49,026 nt of DNA from an uncultured Chitinophaga sp. (GTDB lineage Bacteria; Bacteroidota; Bacteroidia; Chitinophagales; LD1). Position 1 is the first letter of the stretch, and each line of letters starts with the position of its first letter. The stretch covers positions 1 through 49,026 of the forward strand of contig CAZUHU010000006.1 in NCBI GenBank assembly GCA_964620645.1, in the 5' to 3' direction. The notes under the pieces were generated by a model that worked only from the letters and a program-made list of their open reading frames with translations, made no database searches and was not told where the DNA came from. Of the stretch, positions 10,677-47,100 are shown piece by piece. The translations under genes and the position numbers were made by a program.

Positions 10677-13600
10677 ATGAAAAATTCTGTCCTTTCAGCT
10701 GTGGCATTGTTTTTTGCACACACTGTTTTTGCTCAAAACGGCCCTTATTGGCAACAACAGGTCAACTACACTATTGAAGTTACCCTTAACGATAGTACCC
10801 ACGAGTTGGACGGCTTTATTACCATCGATTATAAAAACAACTCTCCCGCCACACTTAACTATATTTTATTTCATCTGTGGCCCAATGCCTACCAAAACGA
10901 TAACACGCCTTTTGCCAAACAACTTTTAGAAAACGGCAATACTGATTTTCGCTTCAGCAAGTGGTGGCAAAAAGGCTTTATGGATAAGTTGGATTTTAAG
11001 GTAAATGCCGAAGTATGCCGTTGGGGCTTTGACACCGCCGGCCTGCGAACGGAAGTTGCCAAAGTAAATTTGAACGAGCCCCTAGCGCCGGGGCAAAGCG
11101 TGCTCATCTCCACTCCCTTTCATGTTAAGCTGCCCAAAACATTTTCGCGCTTAGGGCACGAAGGCCAGAGCTATCAAATATCACAGTGGTATCCCAAGCC
11201 GGCTGTTTACGATGCCAATGGCTGGAACACCATGCCTTACCTTGACCAGGGCGAATTCTACAGCGAATACGGCAGCTATGATGTAAGTATAACGCTTCCT
11301 AAAAATTATCGTGTAGGCGCTACCGGCGATTTGCAGAACCCCGAAGAAGCAAAGTGGATGGACTCCTTAAGCGAGGTTACCAAAGCACTAAAGAGCTTTT
11401 CAAGCGATATGGCCTTTCCTTCTTCATCAAAAGAAACCAAAACCATACGCTATACCCAAAACAACATCCACGACTTTGCATGGTTTGCTGATAAGCGTTA
11501 CAATGTGGTAAAGGGCGAGGTGGAATTGCCTTACAGTAAAAACAAGGTAACCACCTGGGCGCTGTTCACTAATAACAAGGCCAACACATGGAATAAGGCA
11601 GATGAATATTTGCGCGATGCCATTTACTACTACAGCCTTTGGATTGGTGAATACCCGTACAAGCAGGTTACTGCCGTTGAAGGTGCTTTGGAAGCAGGGG
11701 GTGGTATGGAATATCCTAACGTTACCGTAATCGGAAATGTAGCCAACAAGTTTTCGTTGGATGATGTGATTACGCACGAAGTGGGGCATAACTGGTTCTA
11801 TGGTTTACTGGGCACCAATGAGCGCCTACACCCCTGGATGGATGAGGGTATTAATTCTTACTACGAATTCCGTTACCTCAGCACCAAATACCCTAACGAA
11901 GGTTTAATACACGGCTTTAATAAAAGCACCAACCGCGTGTTTAACATTGGGCAGTATAAACATAATTATATACCGGACCTTGCCTACCAGGCCATGGCAC
12001 GCGAAAATACTGACCAGGCTCTTGAGCAAAACGCAGGCAGGTTTACTGAATTGAACTATGGCGCCATGGTGTACATGAAAAGTGCCCTCATCTTCCGCTA
12101 TCTTGAAAACTACCTTGGTACCGAAACCTTCGACAAGGTGATGAAGAAATACTTTGAAGAATGGAAATACAAGCACCCGCAACCCGATAACCTGCGGGCA
12201 ATATTTGAAAAAGAAACCGGAAAAAATTTAAGCTGGTTTTTTGATGACCTGATTAAGACCGACAAAAAGCTGGATTATAAAATAGCAAAAGCGCCTAAGC
12301 GCCCAAGGTACTATATGGATAGCGTGCACAGCGCATTGCTGATAAAAAACAAGGGAGAAATTACCGGGCCTGTTGTTATAAATTATTTGAAGAAAGATTC
12401 GGTTTTAGGAAGTGCCTGGTACGATTATAACGGCACTGCCATACCTATACCCGATAAATTTAATGGCGAAGCCGACCGCGTTGAAATTGACCACAACCTG
12501 GTTATGCCCGAAATAAACCGTAAGAACAACTTCTATCGTTTAGATAAGCCTTGCCCTACCTGCCGTGGTGTTCGCTTTCAGTTTGTAGGGTCAATTGAAA
12601 ACCAGAAACGCGCACAGCTATTCTTTTTCCCGTACCTGGCCTGGAACAATTACGACAAAACACAGATAGGCATAATGCTTTACAACTCCTTTTTGCCTAC
12701 CCAAAAGTTTAACTACCTGCTGGTGCCGGCCATAGGCACGGCTTCAAGGCAGTTTATTGGCTTTGGCAGAATAGGATATAGTTTCTTTCCTAAGCAGGGT
12801 ATGCAGCGCTTTGAAGTAGGACTTGCCGCAAAACGTTTTGATTACATTCTGTTTCCAAAGCCATTGCTGATGCAAAAGCTGGAGCCATTTGTACATATAG
12901 ACTTTAAGAAAAAAGATTTGCGCAGCCCCGATAACCACAGCCTGCATGTGCGCAGTGTAATTGCCTTTTTGGGTTGGGTAGACTTCAACAAAAACAAAGG
13001 CACGCAGCGTTACTACGTTAATGAAATAAAATACCAATACGAGCGGCAAACTACTTTAAACCCCTTGCGCATAACGGCTACCATGCAACAGGGCAACCAG
13101 TTCATGAACCTGCAACTGGAAGCAAAGTTCTTAATAAGCTACAAGCGCAAAAACGAAGGGCTGCATATACGCGTGTTTGCCGGCGGTTTCCCTTTATACT
13201 TTAAACCTGCTACCGATATAAATGCCCCGCTGCCTAAAATGTATTTAAGTACAGCCACCACTAATAGCTTTGCTTACTGGCTACAGAAGGATTACATGTT
13301 GGATGAAAATTTTGTAGACCGCAACGGCCGCGATAAATACGTAGGCCGACAGGTAGCGCTTAGCGGAGGTGCCTTCCGCAGTATTACCACTTTTGGGGCC
13401 ACCAATAAATTTTTGGCAGCCATAAACTTATCTACCACTACGCATCGCTTCTTCCCTATTTATCCCTTTGTAAACGGCGCTGTAATTGTAAACGAACTAA
13501 ACAAAGTAGAAGTAGCAGCCGAGATGGGCCTTAGCCTGGCCATAGTGCGCGATATGCTGGAACTGCACTTGCCTTTAGTAACCACCAACAACATACGCAA

Positions 13601-21012: not shown

Positions 21013-21084
21013 GGTCCCGTAGTTCAATGGATAGAATAGAAGTTTCCTAAACTTTTGATGCAGGTTCGATTCCTGCCGGGGCTA
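21013..21084 (+). tRNA. tRNA-Arg (anticodon CCT)
   Basis: Folded by hand. The acceptor GGTCCCG pairs with CGGGGCT (two G-U pairs), and the D arm is GTTC-AATGGATA-GAAT. The anticodon arm is GAAGT-TTCCTAA-ACTTT, giving anticodon CCT. The variable loop has 4 nt, the T arm is GCAGG-TTCGATT-CCTGC, and the discriminator is A. CCA is not encoded. Confidence 0.85.
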
Positions 21085-26806: not shown

Positions 26807-28012
26807 ATGAGAAATTTATTTCTTCTTCTAACCCTTTTTCTGTGCTCAGCTTCCAGGGCAGCAACTGACAGTACAGTGTATACGATAACCGCACAAATTT
26901 ATCCTGTAGCGGCAGGGCAGGTAAACGGCGCAGGTAGTTACCCCAAAGGCAGCTTTGTAACTCTTGAAGCCATACCCGTAAGCGGATTTACTTTCGGATA
27001 CTGGAGCTTGAACGGAATGATAACCAGCATGAACACCACCTTTCCCCTCGTAGTTGATACAGACCTTGTTGTTCAGGCCACCTTTTTACAACAACCGGAC
27101 AGTTTTCTGGTTACCGCTAATGCATTTCCGGTAAATGCAGGTATTGTTAGCGGCACAGGTATATACAAAAATGGTGATACCGCTGTTGTAACTGCCCATG
27201 CCAATGCAGGTTATACCTTTAACAACTGGCAGCAAAACGGCATTATAGTAAGCACTGATACCACTTATGCCTTTGCGGTTACAGCCAATATTCACTTAAA
27301 CGCTAGCTACCAGCAGTTACCCATACACGTAACTATCAGCACGCAGGTTTTTCCATCGGACGACGCAGGCACAACTACAGGCGGCGGAATTTATAACCAG
27401 GGAGATACAGTGCATTTAACAGCCAGTGCCCAAGCCGGTTATGTATTTGCCAACTGGCAGGTGTTAGGCATAATTGCAAGTAGTGATTCAGCCTATACCT
27501 TTATTGCTACGGGGGACATGAATCTGCATGCTAACTTTATACCGCTTACTTATACAATAACTACCAATGCCTTACCTGCGCAGGGTGGCACTGTATTGGG
27601 TGGCGGCAGCACCAGCCATGGCAGCACTGTAACCTTACAGGCCTTCGCCTACAACGGTTATGCTTTTGATTATTGGGAAGAAAACAGCACTGAGCTAAGC
27701 CGGTTGAGCCAATATTCCTTTACCGCTACTGCCGACAGAACAATTACGGCCCGCTTTAAATTGCTTACTTCTATAGAAGACAACAAAATCCCGGATATTA
27801 TTATAACTCCAAACTTTGGCAGTGGGCCGTTTAGTATAGCGGCTGATAATACTTACCAATTGCAGCTCTTTAATTATGCAGGGCAGGAAATCTTAACCAG
27901 AACTTTAGCCGAGGGAAATAATACTATCGAGATTTCTAACCCCGGTTTATACATCCTGCAACTTACCAATAACGAAGGCGTAACAGTAACAAAGAAACTG
28001 TTGGTTCAATAA
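26807..28012 (+). CDS. Secreted protein with four ~75-aa tandem repeats (InlB-B-repeat-like) and a T9SS type A C-terminal domain
   Basis: Has a signal peptide. The four repeats each carry the G-x-V/I-x-G-x-G-x-Y and GY-x-F-x-NW cores (GFTFGYWSLNG, GYTFNNWQQNG, GYVFANWQVLG, GYAFDYWEENS). The C-terminus is IIITPNFGSGPFSI...GLYILQLTNNEGVTVTKKLLVQ. Confidence 0.8.
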   Translation: MRNLFLLLTLFLCSASRAATDSTVYTITAQIYPVAAGQVNGAGSYPKGSFVTLEAIPVSGFTFGYWSLNGMITSMNTTFPLVVDTDLVVQATFLQQPDSFLVTANAFPVNAGIVSGTGIYKNGDTAVVTAHANAGYTFNNWQQNGIIVSTDTTYAFAVTANIHLNASYQQLPIHVTISTQVFPSDDAGTTTGGGIYNQGDTVHLTASAQAGYVFANWQVLGIIASSDSAYTFIATGDMNLHANFIPLTYTITTNALPAQGGTVLGGGSTSHGSTVTLQAFAYNGYAFDYWEENSTELSRLSQYSFTATADRTITARFKLLTSIEDNKIPDIIITPNFGSGPFSIAADNTYQLQLFNYAGQEILTRTLAEGNNTIEISNPGLYILQLTNNEGVTVTKKLLVQ

Positions 28013-32024: not shown

Positions 32025-32038
32025 GTTTGCGCGCAAAC
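32025..32038. promoter_or_regulatory. Perfect 14-bp palindrome GTTTGCGCGCAAAC
   Basis: The sequence is its own reverse complement. It ends 27 nt upstream of the ATG at 32066 and overlaps a near-consensus -7-like GATGTTTG. Confidence 0.35.
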
Positions 32039-32065
32039 AAAATTCAATCAACCAAATTAAAAGAA

Positions 32066-34252
32066 ATGAAAAAGACAATTACTCTGATGGTTTTACTGCT
32101 AACCCTGTGTTTCAGTAAAACCTATGCGGGTGGACCTTCTGCCGCTACCCGGTTCGACATGGGCTTTGGCCAAAACGGATTTTATATTGACACCTTAACA
32201 GGCGGGCCGGCTGGCACCTATATACAGTATATGGAAATTTTAGCCGGGGCAGCCAACCAGTTTTGGATTGGCGGTGTTACCAATGGCAGTTACCTTGCTA
32301 ATAAGTTTGACGCCAACGGCGGCCTTATTATGAGCAAAACCGGAAGTGCCTACCAGGCGGCCGGCGGTTATACGGGTGCAATAAAAGGCAATAAGTTTTT
32401 CCTTGGTGGCCAGAACCCCAACGGAGGCCATTACCAAAACATAGCCTACAATTTTGATGGAACTACTAACCCTATGTTCCATCAAAGCACACAACCCGAC
32501 TCCTTTATTACAGAAGCGCTGTATGGGCCTAATTATCCGGTAGGCCAAAGCAACCCGAACTGCTCAGATATTTTAGTAGGAGGTGATATAGTAACAGCCG
32601 TAATCAACTACAGCGGCGATAGCTTATACATCACCCAGTTCGCTCAAGCACCTCATACTACTGTAATTACCTTTCCTAAAATTGCGAGTAGCATTGGTAC
32701 ATGGCGCCCCAAAGCGCTACGTACTATACCCGGTAGTAACACCTGCGCTTTACTGGTTTATGATGTAATGGGCAGCAGTACAGTATTTGTTATTAGCAAC
32801 GGCACCGTTATATCTTCCTATAGCTTAGGTAATGTGCGTTATAATGCAATGATTGCCGTAAACAGTTCACAAATGCTTCTGGGAGGCGATAACCTGTTAC
32901 TATTAAATATAAACACCGGCGCAACCACCGCGGTTACAGCCAATGTAAGCAACGTTTTACAGCTTACCCGGCACGCTGCAAGCGGAGAAATTTATGCCTT
33001 TAATGGCACCAACCTTTATGCGCTAACCTCAGCCATGGTTTTAGACAACACGTTTAACCCCGATGGTTTAGGCAACAATTTTGACTACACACCGGTTAAT
33101 GCCGCTTACCTGTTGGGCACGCAGCAAATTTATTTTACTGATATGGAAATGCTGGGTAACGACATTTTACTTTCCGGCTTTGCGCCCGACTTAAACGGAA
33201 CACCAACTACTGCCGGGTTCGCAGGCTTTGTAATAAAAATACTGGGTAAAGGGTCCAACCCCTCTTTATGCGCTAACTTTACAGCCCAACTGGATTCAGT
33301 TTACGGCACCAGTGGCTGCGATTGGAACGCACACATCACTTTAGCAGGTGCTTTTCCTATGACTGCTACTTTTACCTGGTCGAGTGGTGGCTCAACCACT
33401 CAAGTAACCTCATCACCTTTTATACCGGGCGGCTTATGCCCTGAAACCTACGAGATACTGTTTGAAGATACCAACCATTGTACAGGCTTGGTAAACTTTG
33501 TTACGCCTCCGCCAACACCATGCGTTACACCGGTTATCAGCACACAACTGCCAACTAACCTGCCACTTTGCGAAGGAGAAACCTTACAACTGGGCCCCGT
33601 AAACGTAAGCAACACCACCAACTATACCCAGCAATGGTATAAAGATGGGGCAGCCATTACCGGTGCAACCTTAAACAGCCTTTATACACCACTTGTTACC
33701 ACAAGTGAAAACGGTAGCTATTATTACATAGCAACTTCTAACTGCGGAGCAGGCAGCGACACCTCGGAAACCGTGGCCGTAAACGTTACCGCCAATGCTG
33801 CTGCGGTAATTCTGCAAACCGGCAATGTGTTAACCGCTACACAGTTTACACCCGGTGCATCTTTTGCATGGCACTTAAACGGTACACTTATCCCTAATGC
33901 TAACGATAGCACTTACGTTGCAACACAAAGCGGTAACTATACGGTAAGCACCACTAACGGAAACTGTATGAAATACAGCGATAACCTGAACGTAACCGTT
34001 ATTGGAATTACCGATGAAGAGGACAACAGCAAACTTTCGGTTTACCCTAACCCCGTTACTGAGCTTTTAATTTTAAGCTGCGATGAAGAAATTGAAACGG
34101 TAGAGGTGTATAGCATAACCGGCCAACAGGTATTATTTGTGAGGGGGCAAATAACCAAAGTAAATGTGGCCCCCCTCGCCAATGGCCTTTACACCCTTAA
34201 AACAAAAGCAGCAAGCGGTAAAAGCGCCGTTAAGCAATTCAGTAAACAATAA
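32066..34252 (+). CDS. Secreted multidomain protein with a T9SS type A C-terminal domain
   Basis: The ATG at 32066 gives a clean signal peptide (MKKTITLMVLLLTLCFSKTYA); the TTG-initiated track start at 32027 is rejected. The N-terminal ~400 aa is beta-rich and propeller-like, followed by Ig-like Cys-bracketed modules. The C-terminus is LSVYPNPVTELLILS...GLYTLKTKAASGKSAVKQFSKQ. Confidence 0.8.
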   Translation: MKKTITLMVLLLTLCFSKTYAGGPSAATRFDMGFGQNGFYIDTLTGGPAGTYIQYMEILAGAANQFWIGGVTNGSYLANKFDANGGLIMSKTGSAYQAAGGYTGAIKGNKFFLGGQNPNGGHYQNIAYNFDGTTNPMFHQSTQPDSFITEALYGPNYPVGQSNPNCSDILVGGDIVTAVINYSGDSLYITQFAQAPHTTVITFPKIASSIGTWRPKALRTIPGSNTCALLVYDVMGSSTVFVISNGTVISSYSLGNVRYNAMIAVNSSQMLLGGDNLLLLNINTGATTAVTANVSNVLQLTRHAASGEIYAFNGTNLYALTSAMVLDNTFNPDGLGNNFDYTPVNAAYLLGTQQIYFTDMEMLGNDILLSGFAPDLNGTPTTAGFAGFVIKILGKGSNPSLCANFTAQLDSVYGTSGCDWNAHITLAGAFPMTATFTWSSGGSTTQVTSSPFIPGGLCPETYEILFEDTNHCTGLVNFVTPPPTPCVTPVISTQLPTNLPLCEGETLQLGPVNVSNTTNYTQQWYKDGAAITGATLNSLYTPLVTTSENGSYYYIATSNCGAGSDTSETVAVNVTANAAAVILQTGNVLTATQFTPGASFAWHLNGTLIPNANDSTYVATQSGNYTVSTTNGNCMKYSDNLNVTVIGITDEEDNSKLSVYPNPVTELLILSCDEEIETVEVYSITGQQVLFVRGQITKVNVAPLANGLYTLKTKAASGKSAVKQFSKQ

Positions 34253-34291
34253 GCATTAAACTATTCTCTTTTTGAATTGAGTTTTGTTCGG

Positions 34292-34324
34292 TCCCGCTTT
34301 CGCGCTGAGAGCGGGATTTTATTT
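34292..34324 (+). terminator. Rho-independent terminator for the 32066 gene
   Basis: TCCCGCT-(11-nt loop)-AGCGGGA followed by TTTTATTT. Confidence 0.65.
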
Positions 34325-34326
34325 GT

Positions 34327-34352
34327 AAAAAGGCCCCGCTTAAAACGGGGCC
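34327..34352 (-). terminator. Rho-independent terminator for the 815-aa gene (reverse strand)
   Basis: GGCCCCG-CTTAAAA-CGGGGCC is preceded on the + strand by AAAAA, which is a T-run on the reverse strand. It lies 24 nt past the stop at 34376. Confidence 0.7.
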
Positions 34353-34375: not shown

Positions 34376-36769
34376 CTATTGCGCGCCGGTAATACATAAT
34401 TGTTTTGCAGTAATCTTTCCGTTGTTGTTTACATGCACCAGAATATATGCAGCATCAACCTGGCTAAGTGTTTTGGTGTAAATACCGGCTTTGGTCCAGG
34501 TATCTTCCATCAGCTTTTGGCCAAGGATGTTGTATACATCTATCTGTGCTTTTACCTGTTTCACCTTACTGAAATCGATAAAGATGTTGCTTTCGTTGCT
34601 CCACATACGGATAGCTTCTTTATCTAAATTATCAATACCGGTTGCAGACTTAGCTGTTACGGTTACCTGCTGTTGCACGGTTGATGAACAACCGTCGGCA
34701 TTAGTAACAGTAAGCGTTACGGTGTAAACACCTTCGCTTTGGTATTGGTGGGTTGCAGTAGCTGTAGTGGCTATAGCGCCATCGCCAAAGTTCCACTCTG
34801 TGGCAGTTGCATTAACTGTGGTAGAAGTAAACGTAATGTCCTCAGCAGTTTCAGCAGTCGTTTTATCAACTGTCATTGAGGCGGTCATTGCCTGAACACC
34901 GTTAACCTGAACATTCTTAACAACGGTGTAACCGCTGCTATCAACAAGGGTTACCTGGTAAACACCGGCAGGTACACTTAGGTGAAATGGGCTCACAACA
35001 CTAAGTGCACCATTACCGATGTTATTTCCTTGTATGTCATTTACGCTTACCGTCCAGGCTGCAGCGCCTTCCTGTGCCAGTTCAATTTCTCCCAAGCTTT
35101 CGCATGTGGCATTTAAAGTATTTACCTGAACAGCAGGGGTAAAATGCAATACAAACCTGTAACGGCTGTCAGTTGCTGCACTGCTGAAGCTGTAGTCCCC
35201 CTGCCTAACGTTATGCATAATGTGGAGTTTAGTATCCTCCAGCGTGATATAAGAAGTGGCATCAAAAGAAGTAAGGCCGTCAAAACTTAAAGTATAGTTG
35301 CCGTTAATGCCGGGCTCAAAACCAACAGGCACACGCATGGGTTGCGTGGGCGGCGGCAAGGTATTAAGGCAATACCATTCGGCCGTATCAGAAGTATAGC
35401 TGAATAAGGTATGCCGATTAAGTGCGCCTGCCATTTTCAATCCATCAAAAGCATTATCATAATGCGCTGTAGCGTTTGCATTAAAAGCAACAGTGGTTAC
35501 ATCTAACAACCCTGTTGCATTGTTAGCTGCCTTAATAACCAATTGCTCATTAGTTTGCTTCTGGTAATTGGGGTTATTGCCCTTTACCCTTTGCGTTGCA
35601 TTTATTACATACGAAGCAGGCCCCGGCGCGCTGCGATGCACCATAAAACCCTGGAAGGGCGCTACCACAGTTGCAGGTTGATAGCTTCCGGCAAAAGCTC
35701 CGTTTGTATTCCACACCATTTTAAGCACATCAAAGCCGGTTACCGCGCCACTTATATCCAGTTCGGCAAGGTAGGGGTTAGCTACCAGGTGCCAACCGGA
35801 GGCTACGGGGTGGCCCTGTAGCGTTACATTAAGCCAGTTGCTGTTATCTAAATTGTTAAGTGTATACGAAGAGGCAAGGTTAGGTTGTCCGGTAAGAGAA
35901 AGCACGCCTGAGCCTGTTTTATAAATAGAATAGCCCTGTGCGTTTTGCGTATTGCCGGCCACTTCAACTTTCCAACCGGCGGTGGAACATACCGCCCCTT
36001 GTGTTTCATCATAACTGAACACGGTACCGAAAGGGGACCCTACTGCAACCTGTGTTTCATCACAAGTGCCTACAGGCACTACATAGCCCGGTGTACCCGT
36101 GGCGCCCAGTTGGCTAAAAGCCACGTTATCTACAGGCGAACCTAAAAAGTGCTGGTAATAGGCGCCCGATGCCGCTGCATCGTAGTAACGTTCTGCCGTT
36201 ACTGGCCCCGTAATTGTACCGTTATAGCCAGGGCTAAAATTATCGATAATTGCAGCTTGTGCAGCATAAGTGCTTTTGAATGTCAGCACTCCACCGGTGG
36301 TAGCAAAATTACCGGTCTGCAACTGCAATTCGGAATAAATGTTTACCGCTGCGCCCGGCTGCATAACAACCCCTGCCGTGTTATTAATCCGCAGCATGCT
36401 TATCTCTATCATGCCCGAAACATTCTGGCTGCTGCTACCGGAAAGAACAAAAGCACCGCTACCCAGCACCAGGGCGTTGGAACTTGTTCCACCGGTAACA
36501 TTGCCACATACATCTATATTGCCGATAACCAAAAGCAGTGTGTTATCCTGTATTTCAATATCATGAACACTAACAGATGAGATTAACACAGGATCGTTAC
36601 CTGTATATGGTATCAATACATCAGCAGTGCAACCGTTAGGCACCACACCATTACTCCAATTGGAGGGGGTGCCCCAATCGCTGGTATTTCCCAGCCATGT
36701 ATTAAGGCCAAAAGCATTAACAGTAGCCACCAGCATGGCAACAACAAGAAAAAGAGAATTTCTAATCAT
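34376..36769 (-). CDS. T9SS cargo protein: stand-alone copy of the C-terminal module of the giant gene (PKD domain + type A-like CTD)
   Basis: The ATG at 36769 gives signal peptide MIRNSLFLVVAMLVATVNAFG (track start 36823 rejected). The mature protein starts with NTWLGNTSDWGTPSNWSNGVVP and is collinear with residues from CGANTWLGGTNDWHTAGNWSNGFVP to the end of the 41116 ORF. The two share GWH-x-VANPYLA, PFQGF-x-VHRS and RFVLHFTPA. A PKD-like stretch (WNFGDGAIATT...YTVTLTVTNADGCSS) is followed by a CTD. Confidence 0.85.
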   Translation of the reverse strand: MIRNSLFLVVAMLVATVNAFGLNTWLGNTSDWGTPSNWSNGVVPNGCTADVLIPYTGNDPVLISSVSVHDIEIQDNTLLLVIGNIDVCGNVTGGTSSNALVLGSGAFVLSGSSSQNVSGMIEISMLRINNTAGVVMQPGAAVNIYSELQLQTGNFATTGGVLTFKSTYAAQAAIIDNFSPGYNGTITGPVTAERYYDAAASGAYYQHFLGSPVDNVAFSQLGATGTPGYVVPVGTCDETQVAVGSPFGTVFSYDETQGAVCSTAGWKVEVAGNTQNAQGYSIYKTGSGVLSLTGQPNLASSYTLNNLDNSNWLNVTLQGHPVASGWHLVANPYLAELDISGAVTGFDVLKMVWNTNGAFAGSYQPATVVAPFQGFMVHRSAPGPASYVINATQRVKGNNPNYQKQTNEQLVIKAANNATGLLDVTTVAFNANATAHYDNAFDGLKMAGALNRHTLFSYTSDTAEWYCLNTLPPPTQPMRVPVGFEPGINGNYTLSFDGLTSFDATSYITLEDTKLHIMHNVRQGDYSFSSAATDSRYRFVLHFTPAVQVNTLNATCESLGEIELAQEGAAAWTVSVNDIQGNNIGNGALSVVSPFHLSVPAGVYQVTLVDSSGYTVVKNVQVNGVQAMTASMTVDKTTAETAEDITFTSTTVNATATEWNFGDGAIATTATATHQYQSEGVYTVTLTVTNADGCSSTVQQQVTVTAKSATGIDNLDKEAIRMWSNESNIFIDFSKVKQVKAQIDVYNILGQKLMEDTWTKAGIYTKTLSQVDAAYILVHVNNNGKITAKQLCITGAQ
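34409..34761 (-). repeat. Near-identical 353-bp tract, copy A (partner at 41149-41501)
   Basis: Compared block by block by eye with a constant offset of 6740 nt. The single mismatch is 34451 A versus 41191 T. Identity drops on both sides, in the last 11 codons plus 3' flank and upstream of 34762. Confidence 0.9.
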
Positions 36770-36804
36770 ATTAATTATTTTTTGAAACATAAAAAGGAAG
36801 GGAG

Positions 36805-36837
36805 CGGGGGGCTGAATAAGCATGAAAACAGCCCCCG
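36805..36837 (-). terminator. Rho-independent terminator after the SBBP-repeat gene (reverse strand)
   Basis: The reverse strand reads CGGGGGCTG-(14-nt loop)-CAGCCCCCCG, a 9-bp stem with a 1-nt bulge, followed by CTCCCTTCCTTTTTATG. Confidence 0.6.
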
Positions 36838-36864
36838 AACTCGCACATAACGCTCCCTTGATTT

Positions 36865-39465
36865 TTACAGCTTAACCAGTTTAGCGTTAAATGGCCTGCT
36901 GCCGTTAGAAATACGTATAAAGTAAGTTCCACTGACCAGGCGGTGCACATCAAGCCTTGTAATGGCTTGTGTTAAAAGCAAAGTCATTACAAGGCTTCCG
37001 TCCAATGCAAACATTTCCATAGTGCCTTCATTACCGGTAAGCTTTGTTTCTATCTCAATAGTTACTATATCCAAAAAAGGATTGGGCCCTATACTAACCT
37101 CTCTGGATTTAGTTTCCGCTATGCCCACTCCGCCTGCAGTGTAACAGCTTGAAGTATCAACGCACCCCGCATTGGTTGTTACCACCACAGCATAATTGCC
37201 CAATTGAGTTGCGATAAATGAGGAGGTTGTTTCTCCGTTAACAGCATCGCCATTTGCACAATCAATCCACTGGTATGTTCCATTTGTTTGAGAGCAGATA
37301 AGCGTATCACCGTTTTGAGTAACGCTGGCATCAACCGTGTTTACAATTACAGATATAGTATCAAAAGCCTGGCAGCCTGCATTTGTTTCTACCGTTACAT
37401 AGTACTGCGTAGTTTGCGAGGGGGCAACATCTATAGTTGAGGTTACTGCACCCGTGGACCATGTATAATTATCGCCATTAAAATTCTGATCGCTGATAGT
37501 GGTGCTTTCCCCTGCACAAACATCAGTTGCATCTAATTCCGGATTAGGGTAGGCATTTACATAAACGTCAACGGTTGCTGTATCAACACATCCGTTGGCG
37601 GCAGTGCCGGTAACAACAAAACTAAGCGGGCCTACAGCAGTAGTGGGCACCGTAGCTCCTGAGTTTACGTCACCTGTATTCCATACATAGCTAATTGCGC
37701 CTCCCGCATATAACGTTATATCGGTGCCTACGCATACATCGCCTGAAGTGGCAGTAGCAGTTACATTGGGCACCTGCTTTACGTAAATAGTTTTTGCGGT
37801 TCTCGCACCTGCGCCGCAAGTACTATCTTGCGCCCAAACCACAAAAGGGCTTTGAACATTTGGCAAATTATATGTTCCACTTGCAAGGCAGGTGCCTGCA
37901 GTCGGACTGTCGTACCAGCTTATCACCCCGTTACCGGAAGCAGAAAGACTTACAGCAAAACCTGAGCAAATCGAATCTGAAGGAGAAGCGGACACTGTTG
38001 GCGCCGGAGGAAAGTTGCAGTCGGCAAACTTTACGATAAAGCCTTCCTGCGAATTGCTAGTTGTTTCCAGCTTTCTGTTAACCGGGCTTATGTCAACATC
38101 TATATTGATGTTAAAATAGCCCGTTAAGTAAATAGCTGAATTGTTATCAATACAAAGCCCGTTACCAAGGCTGTTGCCCCCGTTAACCAAAGGGTAACCC
38201 CAAATGGGCAGTCCCGTTGTTGAGTATTTCAAAAGGTAAGGATCATGGCCCGATGTATTTACCCGTAGCGTATCAGGGCCGGGGTTAGCATCAAAAGCGC
38301 CCTCGGAATAACCGGTTACATATACGTTTGAGCTTGCATCTAAAGCAACGGTAAAGGCAGTTGTATTAAATGTGCCCCAATAACCGTTCACCCATTGGTA
38401 AACACCTGCCGATGAATACTTGGCAACATAGCCACTCACATAATTGGTTGCCGGTGCCGAAACTATAGCCGTGCCAGCTGTTGGATCAAAATCTGTGCTG
38501 CCGTTAATATAGCCGCATACGTAAGCACTGCCTGTGGCATCAACTGCCACGCCTAGGGCAAAATCTATAGCGTTAGGTCCACCAATGCTTACGCTCCAGC
38601 TTAAAATTAAAGAAGGGTTATACTTTGCCAGGAAAGCATCGCCGGCACCATTGGAGGTCATATTGCTGACTGCTCCCCCTGGGTTAAAATTAACCGTGCC
38701 CGCATAACGGCCGCTAACCAAAAAGTTGCCAGTAGCGTCTATAGCCAGGTCAATTCCAAAATCCTCACCTGTTCCACCCACTCTTCTTTCATTAACAAAA
38801 ATCCCTGCAGTGGTGTATTGTGCAATAAATATATCGTGCGCCCCTGCCGAGGTATCATTCTTTACAGCTGCAGCCGGATTAAAGTCAGCTATAGAAAAGA
38901 AGCGACCTGTTATACAGATATTTCCATTTGCAGGGTTAACACAAATGGCTGAAGCAAAGTCATCATCAGGTCCACCCATGGCACCGGCCCACAGGTAGTT
39001 TCCGGAGGTATCATACTTGGCCAGAAAAATATCATTGTAACCAACTGCACCTAACTTGTTAGTTGCCGCCGAGGGGTTAAAATCAGCAGTATCAGTAAAA
39101 TAACCTGTTATCCAGATATTACCGGATTGATCAAGCGCAAGGTCATAAGCCTCTTCGGCACCGGGCCCCCCGATACTTTTTGCCCACTGTAATTGGCCGG
39201 AAGAAGAGTATTTGGCAATAAAAATATCTAAGCCCGAGTTTACGGAGGACAAAACCGTGCTGCCGCTGCTAAAATCAAAGTCAACATTACTGCCGGCATA
39301 ATAGCCTGCAACATACACGTTACCTGCTCCATCAGTTTTTACAGCCTTAACCATATCGGTACCACTTCCGCTTACTGCCCCCGCCCAGTTATAAGCAGGG
39401 CCGGTTACAGCCCCCGAAAAAAGATAAGAACACATTGCAAGCAACAGGAGTAGATGTTTCTGCAT
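36865..39465 (-). CDS. SBBP (beta-propeller) repeat protein with Ig-like modules and a T9SS type A C-terminal domain
   Basis: 866 aa with a signal peptide. About ten repeats follow the pattern D-x-x-GN-x-Y/W-V/I-TGY-x(n)-DF (for example DGAGNVYVAGYYAGSNVDFD, DQSGNIWITGYFTDTADFNP, DASSNVYVTGYSEGAFDANP). Cys-bracketed Ig-like modules come next, then the C-terminus VSIGPNPFLDIVTIEI...GTYFIRISNGSRPFNAKLVKL. Confidence 0.85.
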   Translation of the reverse strand: MQKHLLLLLAMCSYLFSGAVTGPAYNWAGAVSGSGTDMVKAVKTDGAGNVYVAGYYAGSNVDFDFSSGSTVLSSVNSGLDIFIAKYSSSGQLQWAKSIGGPGAEEAYDLALDQSGNIWITGYFTDTADFNPSAATNKLGAVGYNDIFLAKYDTSGNYLWAGAMGGPDDDFASAICVNPANGNICITGRFFSIADFNPAAAVKNDTSAGAHDIFIAQYTTAGIFVNERRVGGTGEDFGIDLAIDATGNFLVSGRYAGTVNFNPGGAVSNMTSNGAGDAFLAKYNPSLILSWSVSIGGPNAIDFALGVAVDATGSAYVCGYINGSTDFDPTAGTAIVSAPATNYVSGYVAKYSSAGVYQWVNGYWGTFNTTAFTVALDASSNVYVTGYSEGAFDANPGPDTLRVNTSGHDPYLLKYSTTGLPIWGYPLVNGGNSLGNGLCIDNNSAIYLTGYFNINIDVDISPVNRKLETTSNSQEGFIVKFADCNFPPAPTVSASPSDSICSGFAVSLSASGNGVISWYDSPTAGTCLASGTYNLPNVQSPFVVWAQDSTCGAGARTAKTIYVKQVPNVTATATSGDVCVGTDITLYAGGAISYVWNTGDVNSGATVPTTAVGPLSFVVTGTAANGCVDTATVDVYVNAYPNPELDATDVCAGESTTISDQNFNGDNYTWSTGAVTSTIDVAPSQTTQYYVTVETNAGCQAFDTISVIVNTVDASVTQNGDTLICSQTNGTYQWIDCANGDAVNGETTSSFIATQLGNYAVVVTTNAGCVDTSSCYTAGGVGIAETKSREVSIGPNPFLDIVTIEIETKLTGNEGTMEMFALDGSLVMTLLLTQAITRLDVHRLVSGTYFIRISNGSRPFNAKLVKL

Positions 39466-39583
39466 AAGGGAGAGTTTATCGTTATTAATGGCACAAAGGA
39501 GGGAGTAAGCAGAGGCTATTAAAAAACTAAATTGACATCAAATTAGGCTAGTCAAAACATCCTTTTTTAGCTATCTTGCCCCC

Positions 39584-41056
39584 ATGGCCACCCAAAAAGA
39601 ACTATACGAGCTGGTTCATTCGCTGGATAAAAACGAGAAGAAACACGTTAGCCTCATGATAAATGCCCTTGGTGGCAAAGGGCGAGACCGGTATGCTTAC
39701 GTTTTCGATACTATAAACAAGCAGAAGGACTATGACGAAGCAAAACTGAAACTGAAACTCGCCAGGGGGGTAAGCGGCATGAACCTTTCTGAAGCCAACA
39801 ACTATGTATACGATTTCATTTGCAAGGCCGTAATAAGCTATTTACCTGGTCAAAATTTAGGCTACTCAAATCATCTAAAGTTCATCGAGTTTCTAATTAA
39901 TAAGAAGCTATTGGATAGCGGGCATAAGCAATTACAAAAGCTTATACCTGAACTGGAAAGTGCCGGCTCGCATTCGCAGTTGTTACGCGCCTACGAACTG
40001 CAGGAGTTTGTAACAATACAGCACCCCGGGGTTAATGCCGACTATGGTTTCCGTTCGCGCTTTTTCGAAAAACGGTTAACGGCAATAAGAAATCAATTGC
40101 AAAATGTGGAAATACTGCAGCTGCAGTACCGCTTTCACAAGGCCGCTAAGGAGGTTGGCCAGCCCCGCACCAAAGCACAACTGAAGCCTTTTGAAGAACT
40201 ATGGGAAAACCCATTACTGAACTACCCGCTTGAGAAAATAGAGCGGAGCTCAATAGTGCCTTACCTGCTTATGAAGATATCGCTGGCGGCCGCACTATAC
40301 AAACCCGAGGCTTATCAAATAGCTGTTGATGCAGTTAAGTTTATACAAACCAACTTTAAGGAAAAGAGTTTTGAAAACCGCGAAGCCAACCTTTTAAACA
40401 CCTTGCTTACGTTAATGATTACCCAACCCGAGGTAAACTACGGCGAGTTGCAATGGGCTACCAGAAGGATGCGCGAGATTAAAAAGAGCAACCAACACCC
40501 CGTAATATGGCAGCAACGCGAGGCGAAGATTATAATGGCTGAGTTAAGCTATTACCTGAAGAGAAAGCAATACAAAAAAGCCACCGCTTACTTTGAGCAA
40601 ATTATAAAGCCTGAAGTAAAAGATACGTGGACAGGCTCGCTGGTTAACTATGCCGTACCATGGATGGGGGCGCGCCTTTACTTTTTGGACCGAAACCCCG
40701 ATAAAGCACTTGACTGCCTTTTAATGATACAGGGCCAGGAAAAAACCATGAGCCCCAATGTTTTTATTGATTACAAATTCCTTTCGTTAATGTGCCATTA
40801 CAAACAGGAAAACCATAGCCTGGTTATAAGCACAGCCGACTCCCTATATAAACGTTTACGCAAAACAGAAAAGCTGTATGCCCCTGAAAAAGCTATGCTT
40901 AGCTTTGTAAAAAGCAGCGGCACTATAGAAAAAATGAAGCACAACATGCGCCGTCTGTATGATACCTTTCGTGTTTTAAAGAAAGACCCTTTTAACTCTT
41001 CATTCTTCTTATACAGCGATTACATAGAGTGGCTAAAAATGGAATTGGAGAAATAG
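39584..41056 (+). CDS. Hypothetical cytoplasmic all-helical protein (490 aa), no family recognised
   Basis: Clean ORF with no signal peptide or TM helix and a K/E/L-rich helical-repeat character. It is divergent from the SBBP gene and convergent with the giant gene. Confidence 0.65.
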   Translation: MATQKELYELVHSLDKNEKKHVSLMINALGGKGRDRYAYVFDTINKQKDYDEAKLKLKLARGVSGMNLSEANNYVYDFICKAVISYLPGQNLGYSNHLKFIEFLINKKLLDSGHKQLQKLIPELESAGSHSQLLRAYELQEFVTIQHPGVNADYGFRSRFFEKRLTAIRNQLQNVEILQLQYRFHKAAKEVGQPRTKAQLKPFEELWENPLLNYPLEKIERSSIVPYLLMKISLAAALYKPEAYQIAVDAVKFIQTNFKEKSFENREANLLNTLLTLMITQPEVNYGELQWATRRMREIKKSNQHPVIWQQREAKIIMAELSYYLKRKQYKKATAYFEQIIKPEVKDTWTGSLVNYAVPWMGARLYFLDRNPDKALDCLLMIQGQEKTMSPNVFIDYKFLSLMCHYKQENHSLVISTADSLYKRLRKTEKLYAPEKAMLSFVKSSGTIEKMKHNMRRLYDTFRVLKKDPFNSSFFLYSDYIEWLKMELEK

Positions 41057-41060
41057 GCAC

Positions 41061-41093
41061 AAAAAAAGCGGCCCCGTTATAAACGGGGCCGCT
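41061..41093 (-). terminator. Rho-independent terminator for the giant gene (reverse strand)
   Basis: AGCGGCCCCG-TTATAAA-CGGGGCCGCT is a 10-bp stem preceded on the + strand by AAAAAA, which is a T-run on the reverse strand. It lies 23 nt past the stop. The stem core GGCCCCG/CGGGGCC resembles the terminator at 34327-34352. Confidence 0.75.
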
Positions 41094-41115
41094 CAAATGG
41101 ATACAATCGTAAAGG

Positions 41116-44100
41116 CTATTTAGTGCCTGTTATAAATAATTTTTGCGTAGTAATCTTTCCGTTGTTGTTTACATGCACCAGAATATATGCTGCATCAACC
41201 TGGCTAAGTGTTTTGGTGTAAATACCGGCTTTGGTCCAGGTATCTTCCATCAGCTTTTGGCCAAGGATGTTGTATACATCTATCTGTGCTTTTACCTGTT
41301 TCACCTTACTGAAATCGATAAAGATGTTGCTTTCGTTGCTCCACATACGGATAGCTTCTTTATCTAAATTATCAATACCGGTTGCAGACTTAGCTGTTAC
41401 GGTTACCTGCTGTTGCACGGTTGATGAACAACCGTCGGCATTAGTAACAGTAAGCGTTACGGTGTAAACACCTTCGCTTTGGTATTGGTGGGTTGCAGTA
41501 GTTGTAGTGGCTATAGCGCCATCACCAAAGTTCCATTCGGTAGTGGTTGCGTTAGCTGTGGTAGAAGTAAAGGTAATGTCCTCAGTAGTTTCAGCAGTGT
41601 TTTTATCTGCAGTCATACCTGCCGCAATGGTTTGCACACCATTAATCTGCACGTTCTTAACTACTGTATAACCGCTGTTATCTACTAAAGTAACCTGGTA
41701 AACGCCTGATGTTGCACTTACAGCCACGCTGTTATTCTGGCTCAATGTTCCGCTGGCAATTACCACATTGTTCTGGTTGCTTACGGTGTAATTCCAGTTA
41801 GCAGAACCAGGTTGTTCAATAGTAATCTGGCCCATTGTGGCACAGCTTGCATCGGTAGTGCTAAAGGCAGCAGCCGGTGTAAAATGAAGTACAAAACGCT
41901 CATGAGCATCGGCAGTAGTGCTTTGGAAAGTATAAGTTGGGTTTTGTCTTAAATCAATCCACTGTCCGGTTAACTTATCTTCCAGAAACACATAGCTTGT
42001 AGGATCGAAGCTGTTAATGCCGCTTGCAGTAAAGGTAAACGTTCCGTTAGCGCCCGGTATAAAGTTCATAGGCACGTTTGGTGTTTCATCAATAGTGCGG
42101 TTTACGTTTATTGATAAACGTTCAGCATTGTTGGTGTTAAATGTAAAGATGGTAGGCTGGCCTAAAACGCTTAGTGGTTTGCGGTTATCGTAACCAAGGT
42201 CGTAAGCGTTAGTAGCATCCGAATTAAACTCTACGTAAGTAATATCATTAAAGCCGTTACCGCTAACCTGTATGTTCATAGCATACTGGCTGGCCTGCTT
42301 GTAGAAAGTTTGGCCGGCGTTAGTAGTACACTCACTCTTGTTAAATGTAAAGTTTACACTGCTTGAAGAGGAGCGGTGAACAATAAAGCCCTGGAACGGA
42401 GCAATGCTGCCTCCTGTAATTGGAATAGGCTGGTATGAACCGCTGAATGGTCCGCTGGTTACCCAAATAGCCGCTGCATCAAAATCAGGCGCGTGGCCAT
42501 TCAAGGTAAGCGGCGCCAGGTAAGGGTTAGCTACAATATGCCAGCCCGATTCGTAAGCCGCAGGAACAAACCCGAAGGTCTGAAGGGTGTTGCTTGCCCA
42601 GCCGATGTTATTCATACCGTTAACCGAGTAGCTTGCGCCCTGGTTAATGTTACCGGTAATGCTGAATACACCGTTTGGCAGAAAGGCAGAGTAACCGCGG
42701 CCTGCTTGTGTAGTACCGCTCACTTTTACTTCCCAACCGTTATACAAGCACTGTGCGTTTAGTGGCTTATCATCATGCCACTGGAATACGGTACCATAAG
42801 GGCTGTTAATAGCAGTTTGTGTTTGGTCGCAGTTCCAGGTTGGTAATACGTAACCCGCAACACCTGTTGCACCTAACTGGCCAAATGTGGCGTTGGTTAC
42901 CGGTGTGCCAAAGTAGTGCTGGTTAGTACCACCCACTGGCACAAAGCGCTGGGCAGTAGCATTACCGCTTAAGCTACCTGTAAAGCCTGCACTGAAGTTA
43001 TCAAGTATAGCAATTTGCGAGGCAGATGTGCTGCGGAAGCGTAAGGTAGCGCTGCCGGTGCTTAATACACCTGTTTGCAATTCTACTGCGTTAAACACAT
43101 CAACCGAAGCACCGGCCTGTAACGAAGCGCCTGCTGCGTTATTAAGGCGCAGGGTATTTACTTCCAGCTTGCCGCTTAATTGCTGGGCGCCGCTGCCACT
43201 TAATATTAAGCGGCCCGTGCCGTTAACCTGTGCCACGGTGCTTGCACCGCCGCTAAAGTTGCCGCATACATTAAGGTTAGCATTAAGGGTAAGTGTTGTT
43301 CCGTTTTGCAACTGAACGCTGCCTACGTTAACCGCACTGCTTAATACAGGGTTATTTGGTGTAACAGGTACTATAACATCATGCGAACACAAAGTAGGAA
43401 CAAAGCCGTTGCTCCAGTTGCCGGCAGTATGCCAATCGTTGGTGCCGCCTAACCAGGTGTTAGCGCCGCAGGTAGTTACGTTAACAGCTACTGTGCCTGT
43501 AGAAGTACAGCTTTGGTTATCTGTAACAGTTACATTATAAGTGCTATTGGTTGTTGGAGCCACTGAACCACCGGAAACGTTACCGGCTATACCGCTGCTC
43601 CATGCATAAGTGCTAATAGGATTGCTTCCTGCGGTTGCACCTGCTGAAATAGTAGAAGCTGCACCATTACATATAGTAGCCGGTGTAGCCGTAGGCGCTA
43701 AAACAGGTGGATTATAAACCACAAAGTTAGTAGCTGTGCGGCAAGTACTGTTTGAAGAACATGCAGCATAGAATGTAGTTGTACCCGGTGTATTAGGGTT
43801 AACCAGGCTTAAGCTTACAGGGTTTATTGATGAGCCTGTACCAACAACTGTGCCGCCTACAGCTGCACTATACCAGTTCATAGATACTGTACCAGGCAGC
43901 ATAATTTGACCGCCGCTTGGTGGTGTTACCGTCCATGTAAATGGCCCGGTATAAGTACCCGAAACAGTTGCATAAGTAGTTGAAACAAGCGTATAGGTAG
44001 TACCCGCATTTAAGGTAACAGTCATTAAAGGTTCGTTACCAGCAGCACCACCATCATCATCACCTATTACCCAGGTACCGCCGCCGGCACAGTTGCCGGG

Positions 44101-47100
44101 CACAAAAGCACCTGTGGTTATATATGCCATGCCGTCAAATGCAGTGTTATCGGTCATTTCTAAGGTATATGAACCGCTAACACTTACCTGGAACTGCTGC
44201 GCAACATAGTTACGGTTATAAACCGTGCTGCTGAATGAACAGGTAGTTGAATTTGACATGCTGCCTGTAGGGCGGTTAGCTGTAGGGTCTGTAGCGCCGT
44301 TCCATGCGCTTGATATTGTTAAACCTGAGTTTATAAAACCGCTGCAGGTAGAAGACGTAGAAATTGTTGCTGTTCCACCCGGACATATGCTTGCGCCTGT
44401 AGTAACCGGAGGAGCAGGGTTTACGGTTACTGTTGCTGAACCGGTAGCAGAACAGGTAGTTGCTGTTACGGTAGCAGAAACGGTATATGTAGTGGTTGAA
44501 GATGGACTTACAGATACAGATTGTGTTGAACCCAATGAGTTGCTCCAAGCGTAAGTAGCACCGCTGGCAGGCGAGGCCGCTAAAGTAACAGAACTGCCCG
44601 TGCCGGCACATATGCTTGAAGTTGAAGGGTTAATTGTAACCGTTGGATTAGCATTTTGTATGGCCTGGAAAGGTGCCGTAGTAGCTGAAAGGCCAGATGT
44701 GCTGCAAGTTGACTTTAAACGATAGTAAATGGTATGCGTAATAGCCGGTGACGTGTAATTGGCAGTTGTTGCGCCGCTGCCGCCTACTGCATTTGCCCAG
44801 GCATCGGTAGCACCGTTATCATCACTTTCCTCCCACTGGTAGGTTACACCGGGGGTAGTGCTTAAGCCGGTAGCATTTAAGGTTACTGTTGAAGTTGTAC
44901 CACAGAAGAATTGAGGCGTTGTTTGCGTAATAGTACCCGCATTAGGCGTGCCGCTGCAAGGGCAGGTAACAGTTATAGTACCTGTGGCACTGTTTACTGA
45001 CGATTGGTTATCTACAATAATTAAATAAGTAGTGCCCGCATTAAGCGTAATGGTGTTGCTGAAACCACCGTTATTTATTATACCAAGGCAAGTCCATCCC
45101 GTTGGGCCGCAACCTAAGCTGGCATCTTTATACAAAGTGCTAACGTTTGCTGTGCCGGTTTTAACACCGTCAAATTTATACGAGCCTGTTACGCTTGGTG
45201 TAAAGCTAAAGAATTGCTCAGGGCCTGGCGTTGCATTGCCGCAACTGTTGTTAGGGCTGGTACCCGAGAAGTTGTAGGCAGTGGCGCCTGTTGCACCCGC
45301 AACACTATAATTACCCGCCACGCCACAAGTAAGCGGCGTTGCTGTTGAACAATCTAAAGGCGTGGTAAAGCTTACAACAGTTGAGTTGCTGCTATAATCA
45401 GTACCGCTGCAGTTGTTACGTATGTATGCATAATAAGTAGTGTTAGGCGTAAGGCCGCTTATTGTTATTGGCGAACTGCTTACCGGTGCGGTTACAGTAC
45501 CGGCGCCTGCGGTTGCTCCCGTTCCGGGCGTAAATCCTGAGGTAGTGCTGTATTCAGCAATGAATGTGCCTGTGCAGCTTGTGCAGGTAAATGGCAGTGT
45601 AGCACTGTTAGGCGCAGTAGTTACCGTACCTATAGTTGGCGTTGTGGCGCACACAGGGCTTAAATCAACACTTACATCATCTACAAAAATATACCAAAGG
45701 TTGCTGGCTGATAAACCATGGAAACCTATTGAATAAGCATTGGTAGCTGATGGTGTAAAGTCGGCAGTGATTTTTGTGTAAGGGTTACCGCCTGTTATAC
45801 CAAAAGAAGTGACAATGGTTCCGCTTGTCATTGCAGCAGAAGATGGCGCCGTGCCGTACTTAACTTCCAATTGCTCAGTTAAACCGGTATAGCCTCTGCA
45901 CCAGAAAGTCAGGCGATAGGAAGTTCCCCCGGTTAAGTTTAACTGCGGCAGGAAGAACCAATCGTTCATAGCTGCTGTAGGATTATAACGTATACCCATT
46001 TGGTTGGTACCGCTGTTAGGTGTAACTGCAGTGCTGTTACCCAAAGAGGTGCTTGTGCAGGTTTGCCAGGTGTAGGCATCGGCATTGGTGTTTTCTACAC
46101 CAAAGCAACTTGGCAGAGCAGGTTGCGTTACCCCATCAAAGTTTTGAGAGTATGGTATGTTAAGTGCATTACATGGCGTAGTAAAGCTGGCAACAGGGCT
46201 ATTAGCGCTGTAGCTGCTACCGCTGCAGTTGTTTCTTACATATACATAGTAGGTTGTATTTGGAGAAAGGCCGCTTATGGTAATTGGCGAACTGCTAACC
46301 GGTGTAGTTACCGTACCGCCGCCTGCCGTTGCCCCTGTGCCGGGGGTAAAGCCCGATGTGGTGCTGTATTCAGCAATAAAGTTACCGGTGCAACTGGTAC
46401 AGGTAAATGGTACGCTGGCACTGTTAGGGGTTGTAGTAATGGTGCCAATGGTTGGTGCAGTTAAGCAGGCCGGCGTTAAATCTACGGTTACGTCATCTAC
46501 AAAAATATACCACTGATTGCTGGCCGATAAACCATGGAAACCGATACTGTAGTCATTAGATGAAGATGGAACAAAGTCTGCAGTAATTTTGGTATAAGGG
46601 TTTCCACCTGTTATACCAAAGGAGGTAACAATAGTACCGCTTGTCATTGCTGCCGAGGTTGGCGCAGTACCATACTTAACTTCCAATTGCTCGGTCAGGC
46701 CTGTATAGCCACGGCACCAGAACGTTAAACGGTAAGATGTTCCACCGGTTAAAGTTAACGGAGGCAGGAAGAACCAGTCGTTCATTGCAAGGCTGCTGTT
46801 GTAGCTTATACCCATTTGGTTGGTACCACTGTTAGGCGTTACAGCGGTTGAGTTACCCAATGAAGTAGAAGTGCAGGTTTTCCAGGTATAGGCATCAGCA
46901 TTCGTATTTTCTACGCCGAAACAAGCAGGCAATGCGGGTTGTGTTACACCATCAAAATTCTGGGTATATGGCACGCTTTGCGCTGCACAAGGCGTGGTAA
47001 AGCTGGCTACCGAACTATTGCTGCTCCAGTTGCCTGCGCTACAGTTATTGCGCACATATACATAGTACGTAGTATTGGGCGAAAGGCCGCTAAGCGGTAT

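Follow-up and report, generated by a model that had tools for sequence, protein, structure and literature searches.

Gene conversion between loci of one bacterial chromosome is classically known from tufA/tufB of Salmonella, the ribosomal RNA (rRNA) operons and pilE/pilS of Neisseria. The tuf and rrn genes are homogenised along their full length under strong purifying selection, and pilE/pilS is a programmed one-way diversification from silent donor cassettes. For Helicobacter pylori, a passage of PMC3960876 that cites Pride & Blaser (2002) describes babA/babB and homA/homB genes that across strains cluster by locus in their 5′ and middle parts but by genome in their 3′ parts, and attributes the pattern to RecA-dependent intragenomic gene conversion. 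Among type IX secretion system (T9SS) cargo proteins, the rgpA, kgp and hagA genes of Porphyromonas gingivalis carry identical repeats with a combinatorial modularity for which gene conversion and allelic exchange have been proposed (PMC5266723). Here we describe two paralogous genes for predicted T9SS cargo, gene A and gene B, in a stretch of 49,026 nucleotides from an uncultured Chitinophaga sp. (contig CAZUHU010000006.1, positions 1 to 49,026; hereafter the window). Near their 3′ ends the two genes share a 353-nt tract that differs at one position. Very probably, this tract results from a non-reciprocal homologous transfer from B to A that took place after the split from the nearest syntenic lineage and was laid upon an older B-like layer.

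As far as the cited passage describes babA/babB, homA/homB and sabA/sabB, the window shows the same combination of a gene body that groups by locus and a 3′ segment that groups by genome. As in the H. pylori outer-membrane proteins, the homogenised part is the one predicted to serve C-terminal export or anchoring, the functional "head" is variable, and the result is chimeric genes with moving boundaries. The differences are also clear. The H. pylori proteins are β-barrel outer-membrane proteins of a host-adapted pathogen, and for bab and sab the conversions were quantified by experiment and linked to adhesion phenotypes, whereas the genes of the window belong to another phylum and to an uncultured environmental Chitinophagales, would encode T9SS cargo with a cleavable C-terminal domain (CTD) and are known from sequence alone. 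In P. gingivalis the shared units are large adhesin (CAD/DUF2436) blocks and allelic exchange between strains is emphasised, in contrast to the exchanged 0.35–0.5 kb of half a PKD domain plus CTD found here; also unlike that case, A and B are syntenic neighbours, and both direction and layering can be deduced from orthologous pairs. With the tuf, rrn and pil systems the locus shares non-reciprocal transfer between dispersed repeats of one chromosome, sharp islands of identity and a self-reinforcing character. Unlike in tuf, rrn and pilE, the exchange is limited by homology to a 3′ cassette and gives no evidence of programming. The locus is thus a new example of a known process in environmental Chitinophagales and not a new mechanism.

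Genes A and B are both on the minus strand and form direct repeats with an offset of 6740 nt. The two copies of the tract, 34409–34761 in gene A, the recipient, and 41149–41501 in gene B (both minus strand), were compared directly, which confirmed the initial annotation in that the only mismatch is 34451 A versus 41191 T on the plus strand. It is synonymous in the sense of the genes (GCT/GCA, Ala). The next differences are found at 34762 and 34784, and extension to 34784/41524 gives, as had also been noted, 376 nt with 2 mismatches. From 34796 on the differences are dense (34796, 34799, 34802, 34804, 34805), so that the flanking mismatches permit a recent tract of at most 34409–34795 in gene A. 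At the 3′ edge, in gene sense, the identity collapses at 34408, and the last 11 codons read KITAKQLCITGAQ versus KITTQKLFITGTK. The last 10 codons of gene A plus its stop (34376–34408, minus strand) encode the last CTD β-strand (…AKQLCITGAQ); this A-type tail is unconverted, and grouping by locus returns in it. The B-type tail (41116–41148, minus strand; …TQKLFITGTK plus stop) is nearer to the family consensus. The diverged flanks that had been described are therefore real: besides the tail codons, the 3′ untranslated regions (UTRs) are only about 65% alike, though the terminator hairpin is similar.

Upstream of the tract, residues 35–815 of A and 1800–2586 of B share 54% amino acid identity (BLASTP) over a common module of about 780 amino acids (~2.3 kb), in agreement with the moderate protein similarity reported for it. 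Silent sites in the A/B module are saturated. Third-position identity, summed over the module outside the tract, is 0.37 and reaches 117/118 (0.99) inside; in codon-aware sliding windows of 30 codons it stays at 0.2–0.5 over the ~2.3-kb module and is 1.0 over the last ~120 codons. Identity is thus not uniform over the module, contrary to a simple recent duplication; this contrast at third positions rules out a recent duplication of the whole gene and also protein-level constraint as the cause of the island. The decay of identity upstream of the tract was also seen, but it is not simply completed within about 100 nt as originally described. Instead, there is a graded shoulder without a single step, with nucleotide identity of 0.62–0.90 at 34990–34785 and third-position identity of 0.4–0.8 at 35005–34825. 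The region of exchange is collinear and free of indels (constant offset of 6740). A search of the window for repeats returned only the A/B pair and the internal repeats of gene B and of the open reading frame (ORF) at 4118–8992.

Two independently assembled lineages, each holding A and B orthologues in the order of the window, were available for comparison. A scan of GTDB representative genomes yielded a Chitinophagales metagenome-assembled genome (MAG), JBDHYB010000001 (L002), which is syntenic with ~87% nucleotide identity over 16.8 kb, and a metagenome scan yielded a second syntenic lineage, WBZM01000010 (L004), with ~84%. The genes of the window, L002 and L004 are called Aw/Bw, A2/B2 and A4/B4, respectively. 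An additional contig, L005, could not be told from the B locus of L002 by its identity profile in any of the windows compared and was set aside since it adds nothing. The 3′ end of gene A is also covered by a 779-nt activated-sludge contig (L001; ERZ937820 k127_497312, from SRR1168574) that is 98–100% identical to the window there. The A-type tail of the window matches those of A2 and L001, and the A-type tail and 3′ flank of L001 equal those of the window except for two single-base insertions. Upstream of position ~141, L001 departs from the cassette, and this part (L001:1–143) has on its opposite strand a RuvA-like N-terminus (MIAKLTGILDV…GVGYLV), as identified by eye; neither the window nor L002 or L003 contains it. 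Contig L001 is either a real rearrangement with a truncated PKD-CTD ORF of 178 amino acids or a chimeric metagenome contig.

A Sawyer/GENECONV-type permutation test was carried out on the 1234 polymorphic sites of the six-sequence alignment with 5000 permutations. In the Aw–Bw pair, 99 polymorphic sites in succession are concordant (34760–34457), a length reached in 0/5000 permutations, in which the maximum was 12. Four-taxon site patterns of Aw, Bw, A2 and B2 gave the same picture. In the module, 569 sites group by locus, as expected from orthology, versus 11 by genome. Between 34785 and 34408 no site groups by locus and 19 group by genome; at 37 further sites A2 is unique (Aw=Bw=B2) and at 14 B2 is unique. 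Grouping by locus is gone within 34874–34432, where Aw has gene B states at 56 sites, and it is back from 34408 downstream (7 sites in 33 nt, 19 in the next 76 and 78 in the next 174). Neighbour-joining trees of the tract and its flanks are incongruent. For the upstream module the tree has two clades, (Aw,A2,A4) and (Bw,B2,B4), which are 47% diverged and have 100% bootstrap support; in the tract the A/B split is dissolved and Aw pairs with Bw at 100% bootstrap; and the tail gives (Aw,A2) versus (Bw,B2,A4,B4). Together with the sliding windows and with boundaries that move between related genomes (the edges in L004 and L001 differ from those of the window), these results bear out the initial annotation in its choice of gene conversion over a recent duplication of the whole gene.

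The orthologous pairs permit reading the direction. The distance between Bw and B2 is 0.088 in the tract versus 0.101 in the flanking module, whereas within the tract Aw is at 0.091 from B2 and at 0.159 from A2. Since Bw stays at orthologue distance from B2 while Aw is nearer to B2 than to A2, the net flow in the window lineage was from B to A, after its split from L002. In this lineage the exchange was non-reciprocal: B remained at orthologue distance and A was overwritten, and these distances to the L002 orthologues mark 41149–41501 as the presumed donor copy.

The recent tract is preceded by an older layer. In gene A the segment 34762–34874 (minus strand), the first half of the PKD domain, is B-type when compared with the A orthologue; its counterpart in gene B, 41502–41614 (minus strand), is in the same register, at the offset of 6740 and without indels. 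Here Aw has an identity of 0.92 to B2 versus 0.57–0.67 to A2, and at 34880–34785 the distances are 0.115 and 0.333, respectively. Between 34900 and 34785 there are 19 sites unique to A2 and 9 orthology sites, all of which except 34846 lie at or above 34877, and the switch to A-type falls between 34877 and 34874. The layer is ~13–19% diverged from the present gene B copy. It is B-type and yet Aw differs from Bw at about a dozen sites, at eight of which it retains the B2 state, which indicates an older B-to-A event that was later partly overwritten by the recent one. The homogenisation of the cassettes seems to reach further back. Third-position (silent-site) identity between the paralogous cassettes is 0.74 in L002 and 0.68 in L004, which is the level of orthologues and exceeds the 0.37–0.39 of the module; this indicates that the cassettes were already being homogenised at about the time when the three lineages split, or earlier.

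Exchange has also recurred in the sister lineages. The paralogous cassettes of L002 and L004 differ by 15–16% and the orthologous ones by 9–16%. In L004, A4 equals B4 at 33/33 positions of the last 33 nt, where both are B-type and gene A of the window is A-type; the corresponding run of 15 concordant sites (34408–34379) was reached by 0/5000 permutations. This identity continues into the 3′ UTR, and A4 and B4 have a separate stretch, 34703–34603, that is 88–96% alike. In L001 the B-type sequence is longer than in the window: at the 3′ side it takes in one more informative site (34408), and at the 5′ side at least 40 nt more (to 34913). The switch from B-type tract to A-type tail is as in the window, within 3 nt (34408/34406). 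At 34906–34796 (L002 ~11864–11974 and 5121–5231), in the first half of the PKD domain, A2 resembles B4 and B2 resembles A4; L002 and L004 compared over this segment give 18 sites of the swap pattern, 5 of orthology and 1 of within-genome grouping. Sister lineages therefore underwent independent exchanges, which ran in both directions and had different boundaries, and the recurrence makes the cassette a long-standing recombination zone and not the site of a single accident. The non-reciprocal recombination initially proposed stands for the window lineage, but the history has several layers, some of it ran in both directions, and it is more than one homogenising event.

A more distant Bacteroidota MAG, GCA_016715625.1, has two paralogues of the family, L084:4693–6289 (JADJZU010000045) and L085:4786–6547 (JADJZU010000003), with unrelated N-terminal cargo (CARDB/HYR versus RCC1 repeats) and unrelated CTDs. 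They share 1.6 kb at 91–97% nucleotide identity, which stops at the PKD/CTD junction; both genes are broken by frameshifts. Since such a long segment is shared between unrelated N-termini and CTDs, reshuffling of module and CTD seems to be general in the family.

The tract corresponds to residues 688–805 of the 815-codon gene A ORF. PKD matches in Pfam are located at residues ~651–722 and the T9SS CTD (TIGR04183) at 746–807, so that the initial description, by which the tract consists of the distal PKD half and nearly all of the CTD, holds. PKD_4 (PF18911) scores 53.3 bits in gene A and 49.3 bits in gene B (cut-off, 27), the PDB sequence matches of the region are the PKD domains of ColG and ColH, and when a 210-residue model is superposed on 4jrw (ColG PKD), its PKD portion fits with a TM-score of 0.84 and an rmsd of 2.0. 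TIGR04183 gives 26.0 bits for gene A and 18.4 bits for gene B (cut-off, 23), two copies that differ in the last 11 residues only. With PF18962, the proteins of the window stay below the gathering score (gene A, 16.8 bits; cut-off, 27), whereas of 11 family members 10 have a match at E ≤ 0.01, the best at 6e-6. As the three-domain 210-residue model gave mostly generic Ig-like matches in Foldseek, the CTD was modelled alone. The AlphaFold model of the last 91 amino acids (pLDDT 83.6, pTM 0.75) is a seven-stranded β-sandwich that matches substrate CTDs in their bound state within the T9SS translocon of Flavobacterium johnsoniae (8glk_D, TM 0.80; 8gl8_D, 0.76; 8gl6_D, 0.77) and the mirolase CTD (8qb1, TM 0.68); these matches have only modest E-values of 1e-3 to 1e-2, and the model also matches generic Ig/FN3 folds. 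Profiles and models thus support the view that the tract encodes the distal PKD half and most of a predicted T9SS type A CTD. No T9SS core genes were found in the window, where at least four other ORFs have Por_Secre_tail or CHU_C matches; a MAG from the Chitinophagales (Bacteroidota) is the nearest relative. The edges of the tract are inside domains (mid-PKD and the last CTD strand) and off the domain borders.

The history that best explains these data can be outlined. The 3′ cassette (PKD plus CTD) would be the sole part of A and B similar enough for homologous pairing (more than ~80% identity). After the split from L002, the A cassette would have been overwritten by B at least twice through interlocus gene conversion, with an older event reaching upstream to about 34874 and a very recent one covering 34409–34761 (at most to 34795), since which one synonymous difference would have been gained. 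The edges would have formed at drops in prior similarity, namely the A/B-type tail at the 3′ side and the older layer or the A/B divergence at the 5′ side. A homology-limited RecA-type strand exchange, in which the paralogue serves as template for gap or break repair, would account for such products; RecA-dependent enzymology is suggested by an exchange that is collinear, free of indels and limited to residual homology, with edges at similarity drops. Each conversion would restore homology and make the next one likelier. The initial annotation had gone further and described the sorting signal as being kept identical; to take this as selection for identity does not agree with sister cassettes that are 15–16% apart or with edges that cut through domains. 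Because the cassettes of L002 and L004 differ to that extent, identity seems not to be functionally required, and the conversions are better regarded as a largely neutral by-product of retained homology, presumably without selection for identical sorting signals.

Several observations weigh against this account. The window is known from the assembled sequence, without reads. The direction of the most recent event is not readable from the tract, given that A was already B-like there, and only the net flow from B to A is shown. The opposite alleles of L002 and L004 in the PKD half need reciprocal exchange or serial conversions, which is beyond simple one-way conversion. Finally, there are 10 sites in the tract at which Aw equals Bw but not L001, and at several of them L001 agrees with other genomes; these sites leave room for a third donor or for exchange at the strain level.

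A third source, either another paralogue or the DNA of another strain, that replaced both copies in parallel would explain the derived states that Aw and Bw share at those ~10 sites against the near-conspecific L001, all the more as outside the tract L001 departs from the Aw tail and 3′ flank by the two single-base insertions only. Family paralogues are numerous in Chitinophagales genomes, and extra donors would ease the allele swap between L002 and L004. However, to find 10 substitutions in 353 tract sites and 0 in ~130 flank sites is by itself not a significant difference, and the Bw–B2 distance in the tract is the normal one for B orthologues, so that B needs no replacement. Moreover, the window holds no third near-identical cassette, the 36 pattern matches in GTDB representative genomes included only 2 related loci, and none was found in the JGI metagenomes beyond L004 and L005. 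We regard a third source as quite unlikely. An artefact of assembly or polishing (a collapsed or chimeric repeat, or one copy "corrected" with the reads of the other) deserves attention inasmuch as short-read assemblers are known to have difficulty with exact repeats of ~350 nt. Against it, one synonymous site tells the two copies apart, and each continues at either end into the flanks that are orthologous for its locus, while copies ~15% apart, as in L002 and L004, would neither collapse nor cross-polish. The same junction of B-type tract and A-type tail is present in L001, an independent assembly of another sample, and L002 and L004 have mosaic cassettes as well, which makes an artefact very improbable.

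It is equally hard to credit that the PKD-CTD cassette was newly inserted in one of the genes by recent duplication or illegitimate domain shuffling. The 1.6 kb shared at 91–97% by the paralogues of GCA_016715625.1 shows that modules of the family do enter new contexts, but A2 and A4 already possess, at the equivalent position, a cassette that is collinear and in frame, the exchange occurred without indels, at the constant offset of 6740, and its edges, mid-PKD and in the last CTD strand, do not follow domain borders. Selection at the nucleotide level, with the 353 nt acting as a functional DNA or RNA element (a small RNA or a regulatory site) that is required identical twice, has nothing in its favour beyond the identity itself. 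The stretch differs by 15–16% when the paralogues within L002 or L004 are compared and by 9–16% when orthologues are, with substitutions concentrated at third codon positions as in ordinary coding sequence, and this explanation is extremely improbable. Such an element was also looked for with Rfam and rejected: at gathering score, the whole window returned one tRNA (21013–21084) only and no match in either tract. A different question is whether the PKD-CTD end is a dedicated exchange zone, in which T9SS cargo genes repeatedly trade and even reciprocally exchange their sorting or anchoring cassettes. The opposite alleles of L002 and L004, the replacement of the CTD at the PKD/CTD junction in GCA_016715625.1 and the truncated, perhaps stand-alone cassette adjoining ruvA in L001 can be read in this manner, although we consider it unlikely. 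If true, the zone would be a cassette-type system of surface-display variation in environmental Bacteroidota, unlike the passive, homology-driven conversion that we favour.

Concerning the products, the gene A ORF (815 codons) is open back to 36823 and allows forms of 815 and 797 amino acids; the start is likely the methionine of MIRNSLFL at 36769. Look-ups by exact sequence of both forms and of the 490-residue neighbour returned no record in the collection. By its translation, gene A (34376–36769, minus strand) would encode a signal peptide, an uncharacterised module of ~600 amino acids, a PKD domain and a T9SS CTD, and its orthologues P0013 (90%) and P0014 (88%) have the identical architecture. 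Gene B (41116–49026, minus strand) would encode FN3, three choice-of-anchor-J units and Ig-like domains, followed by the ~780-residue module, PKD and CTD. Its frame has no stop at 48876–49026 and is still open at the end of the window, and the listed ATG start lacks a signal peptide; the true N-terminus is therefore outside the window, and the protein exceeds 2636 amino acids. Three tandem units of 816 nt with FN3-like and choice-of-anchor-J sequences, 71–77% identical, are located at 45402–47333 (minus strand) in gene B, and L002 has these repeats too. A and B are ancient tandem-oriented paralogues for predicted T9SS cargo, 6.74 kb apart. Terminator-like hairpins follow gene A (34332–34352, minus strand) and gene B (41066–41094, minus strand). 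They have in common the core GGCCCCGTTT..CGGGGCC, and this core was kept though the surrounding UTRs are only ~65% alike; the terminator was probably part of the original duplication. Another terminator-like hairpin at 34290–34318 (plus strand) stands back-to-back with that of gene A, between gene A and the convergent gene at 32027–34252 (plus strand).

The ~600-residue module (34960–36769 and 41700–43490, both minus strand) has no sequence match in Pfam, NCBIfam or PDB. Public genomes and metagenomes encode at least 34 proteins with it, whose named sources are Chitinophagales or other Bacteroidota. These 34 homologues are unnamed, hypothetical or generically called "PKD/Ig-like/T9SS sorting domain-containing", and are typically of ~800 amino acids with the module-PKD-CTD architecture of gene A. 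Among the candidates examined, P0004, P0007 and P0008 were dismissed as stand-alone or silent cassettes, as they are fragments of long MAG genes split by frameshifts or contig ends, although the two genes from which they derive have 1.6 kb at 91–97% in common, and P0015 (52% to A) was dismissed as a third donor, its cassette being clearly different.

Other T9SS cargo genes of the window are located at 4118–8992 (plus strand), 26807–28012 (plus strand), 32027–34252 (plus strand) and 36865–39465 (minus strand). They represent other types (SprB-repeat/CHU_C type B, Flg_new repeats, Ig_2 and SBBP propeller); every one has a separate, unrelated CTD, and no DNA repeats are common to the A/B cassette and the other cargo genes of the window. 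The ORF at 4118–8992 has an internal 158-nt repeat with 72% identity (6173–6330, 7199–7356). The region between the direct repeats, 36865–41056, holds two genes whose order is conserved in L002 and L004, one for an SBBP β-propeller/Ig_7 protein with a T9SS CTD (36865–39465, minus strand) and one for a BT2802-family-like protein (39584–41056, plus strand).

These findings have consequences beyond the two genes. Repeats of this kind break or confuse short-read assemblies, and related contigs that cover the cassette region are of 779 and 1852 nt. The C-terminal cassettes of T9SS cargo are unsafe for naive orthology assignment or phylogeny. With the direction, layering and recurrence taken from three syntenic genomes, the locus is a well-resolved natural case of interlocus conversion in uncultured Chitinophagales of the activated-sludge type. 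For the organism itself, the 353-nt direct repeats are a ready substrate for deletion of the 6.7 kb between them: a reciprocal crossover would remove the body of A and the two intervening genes and would leave a fusion of the B body with the A tail.

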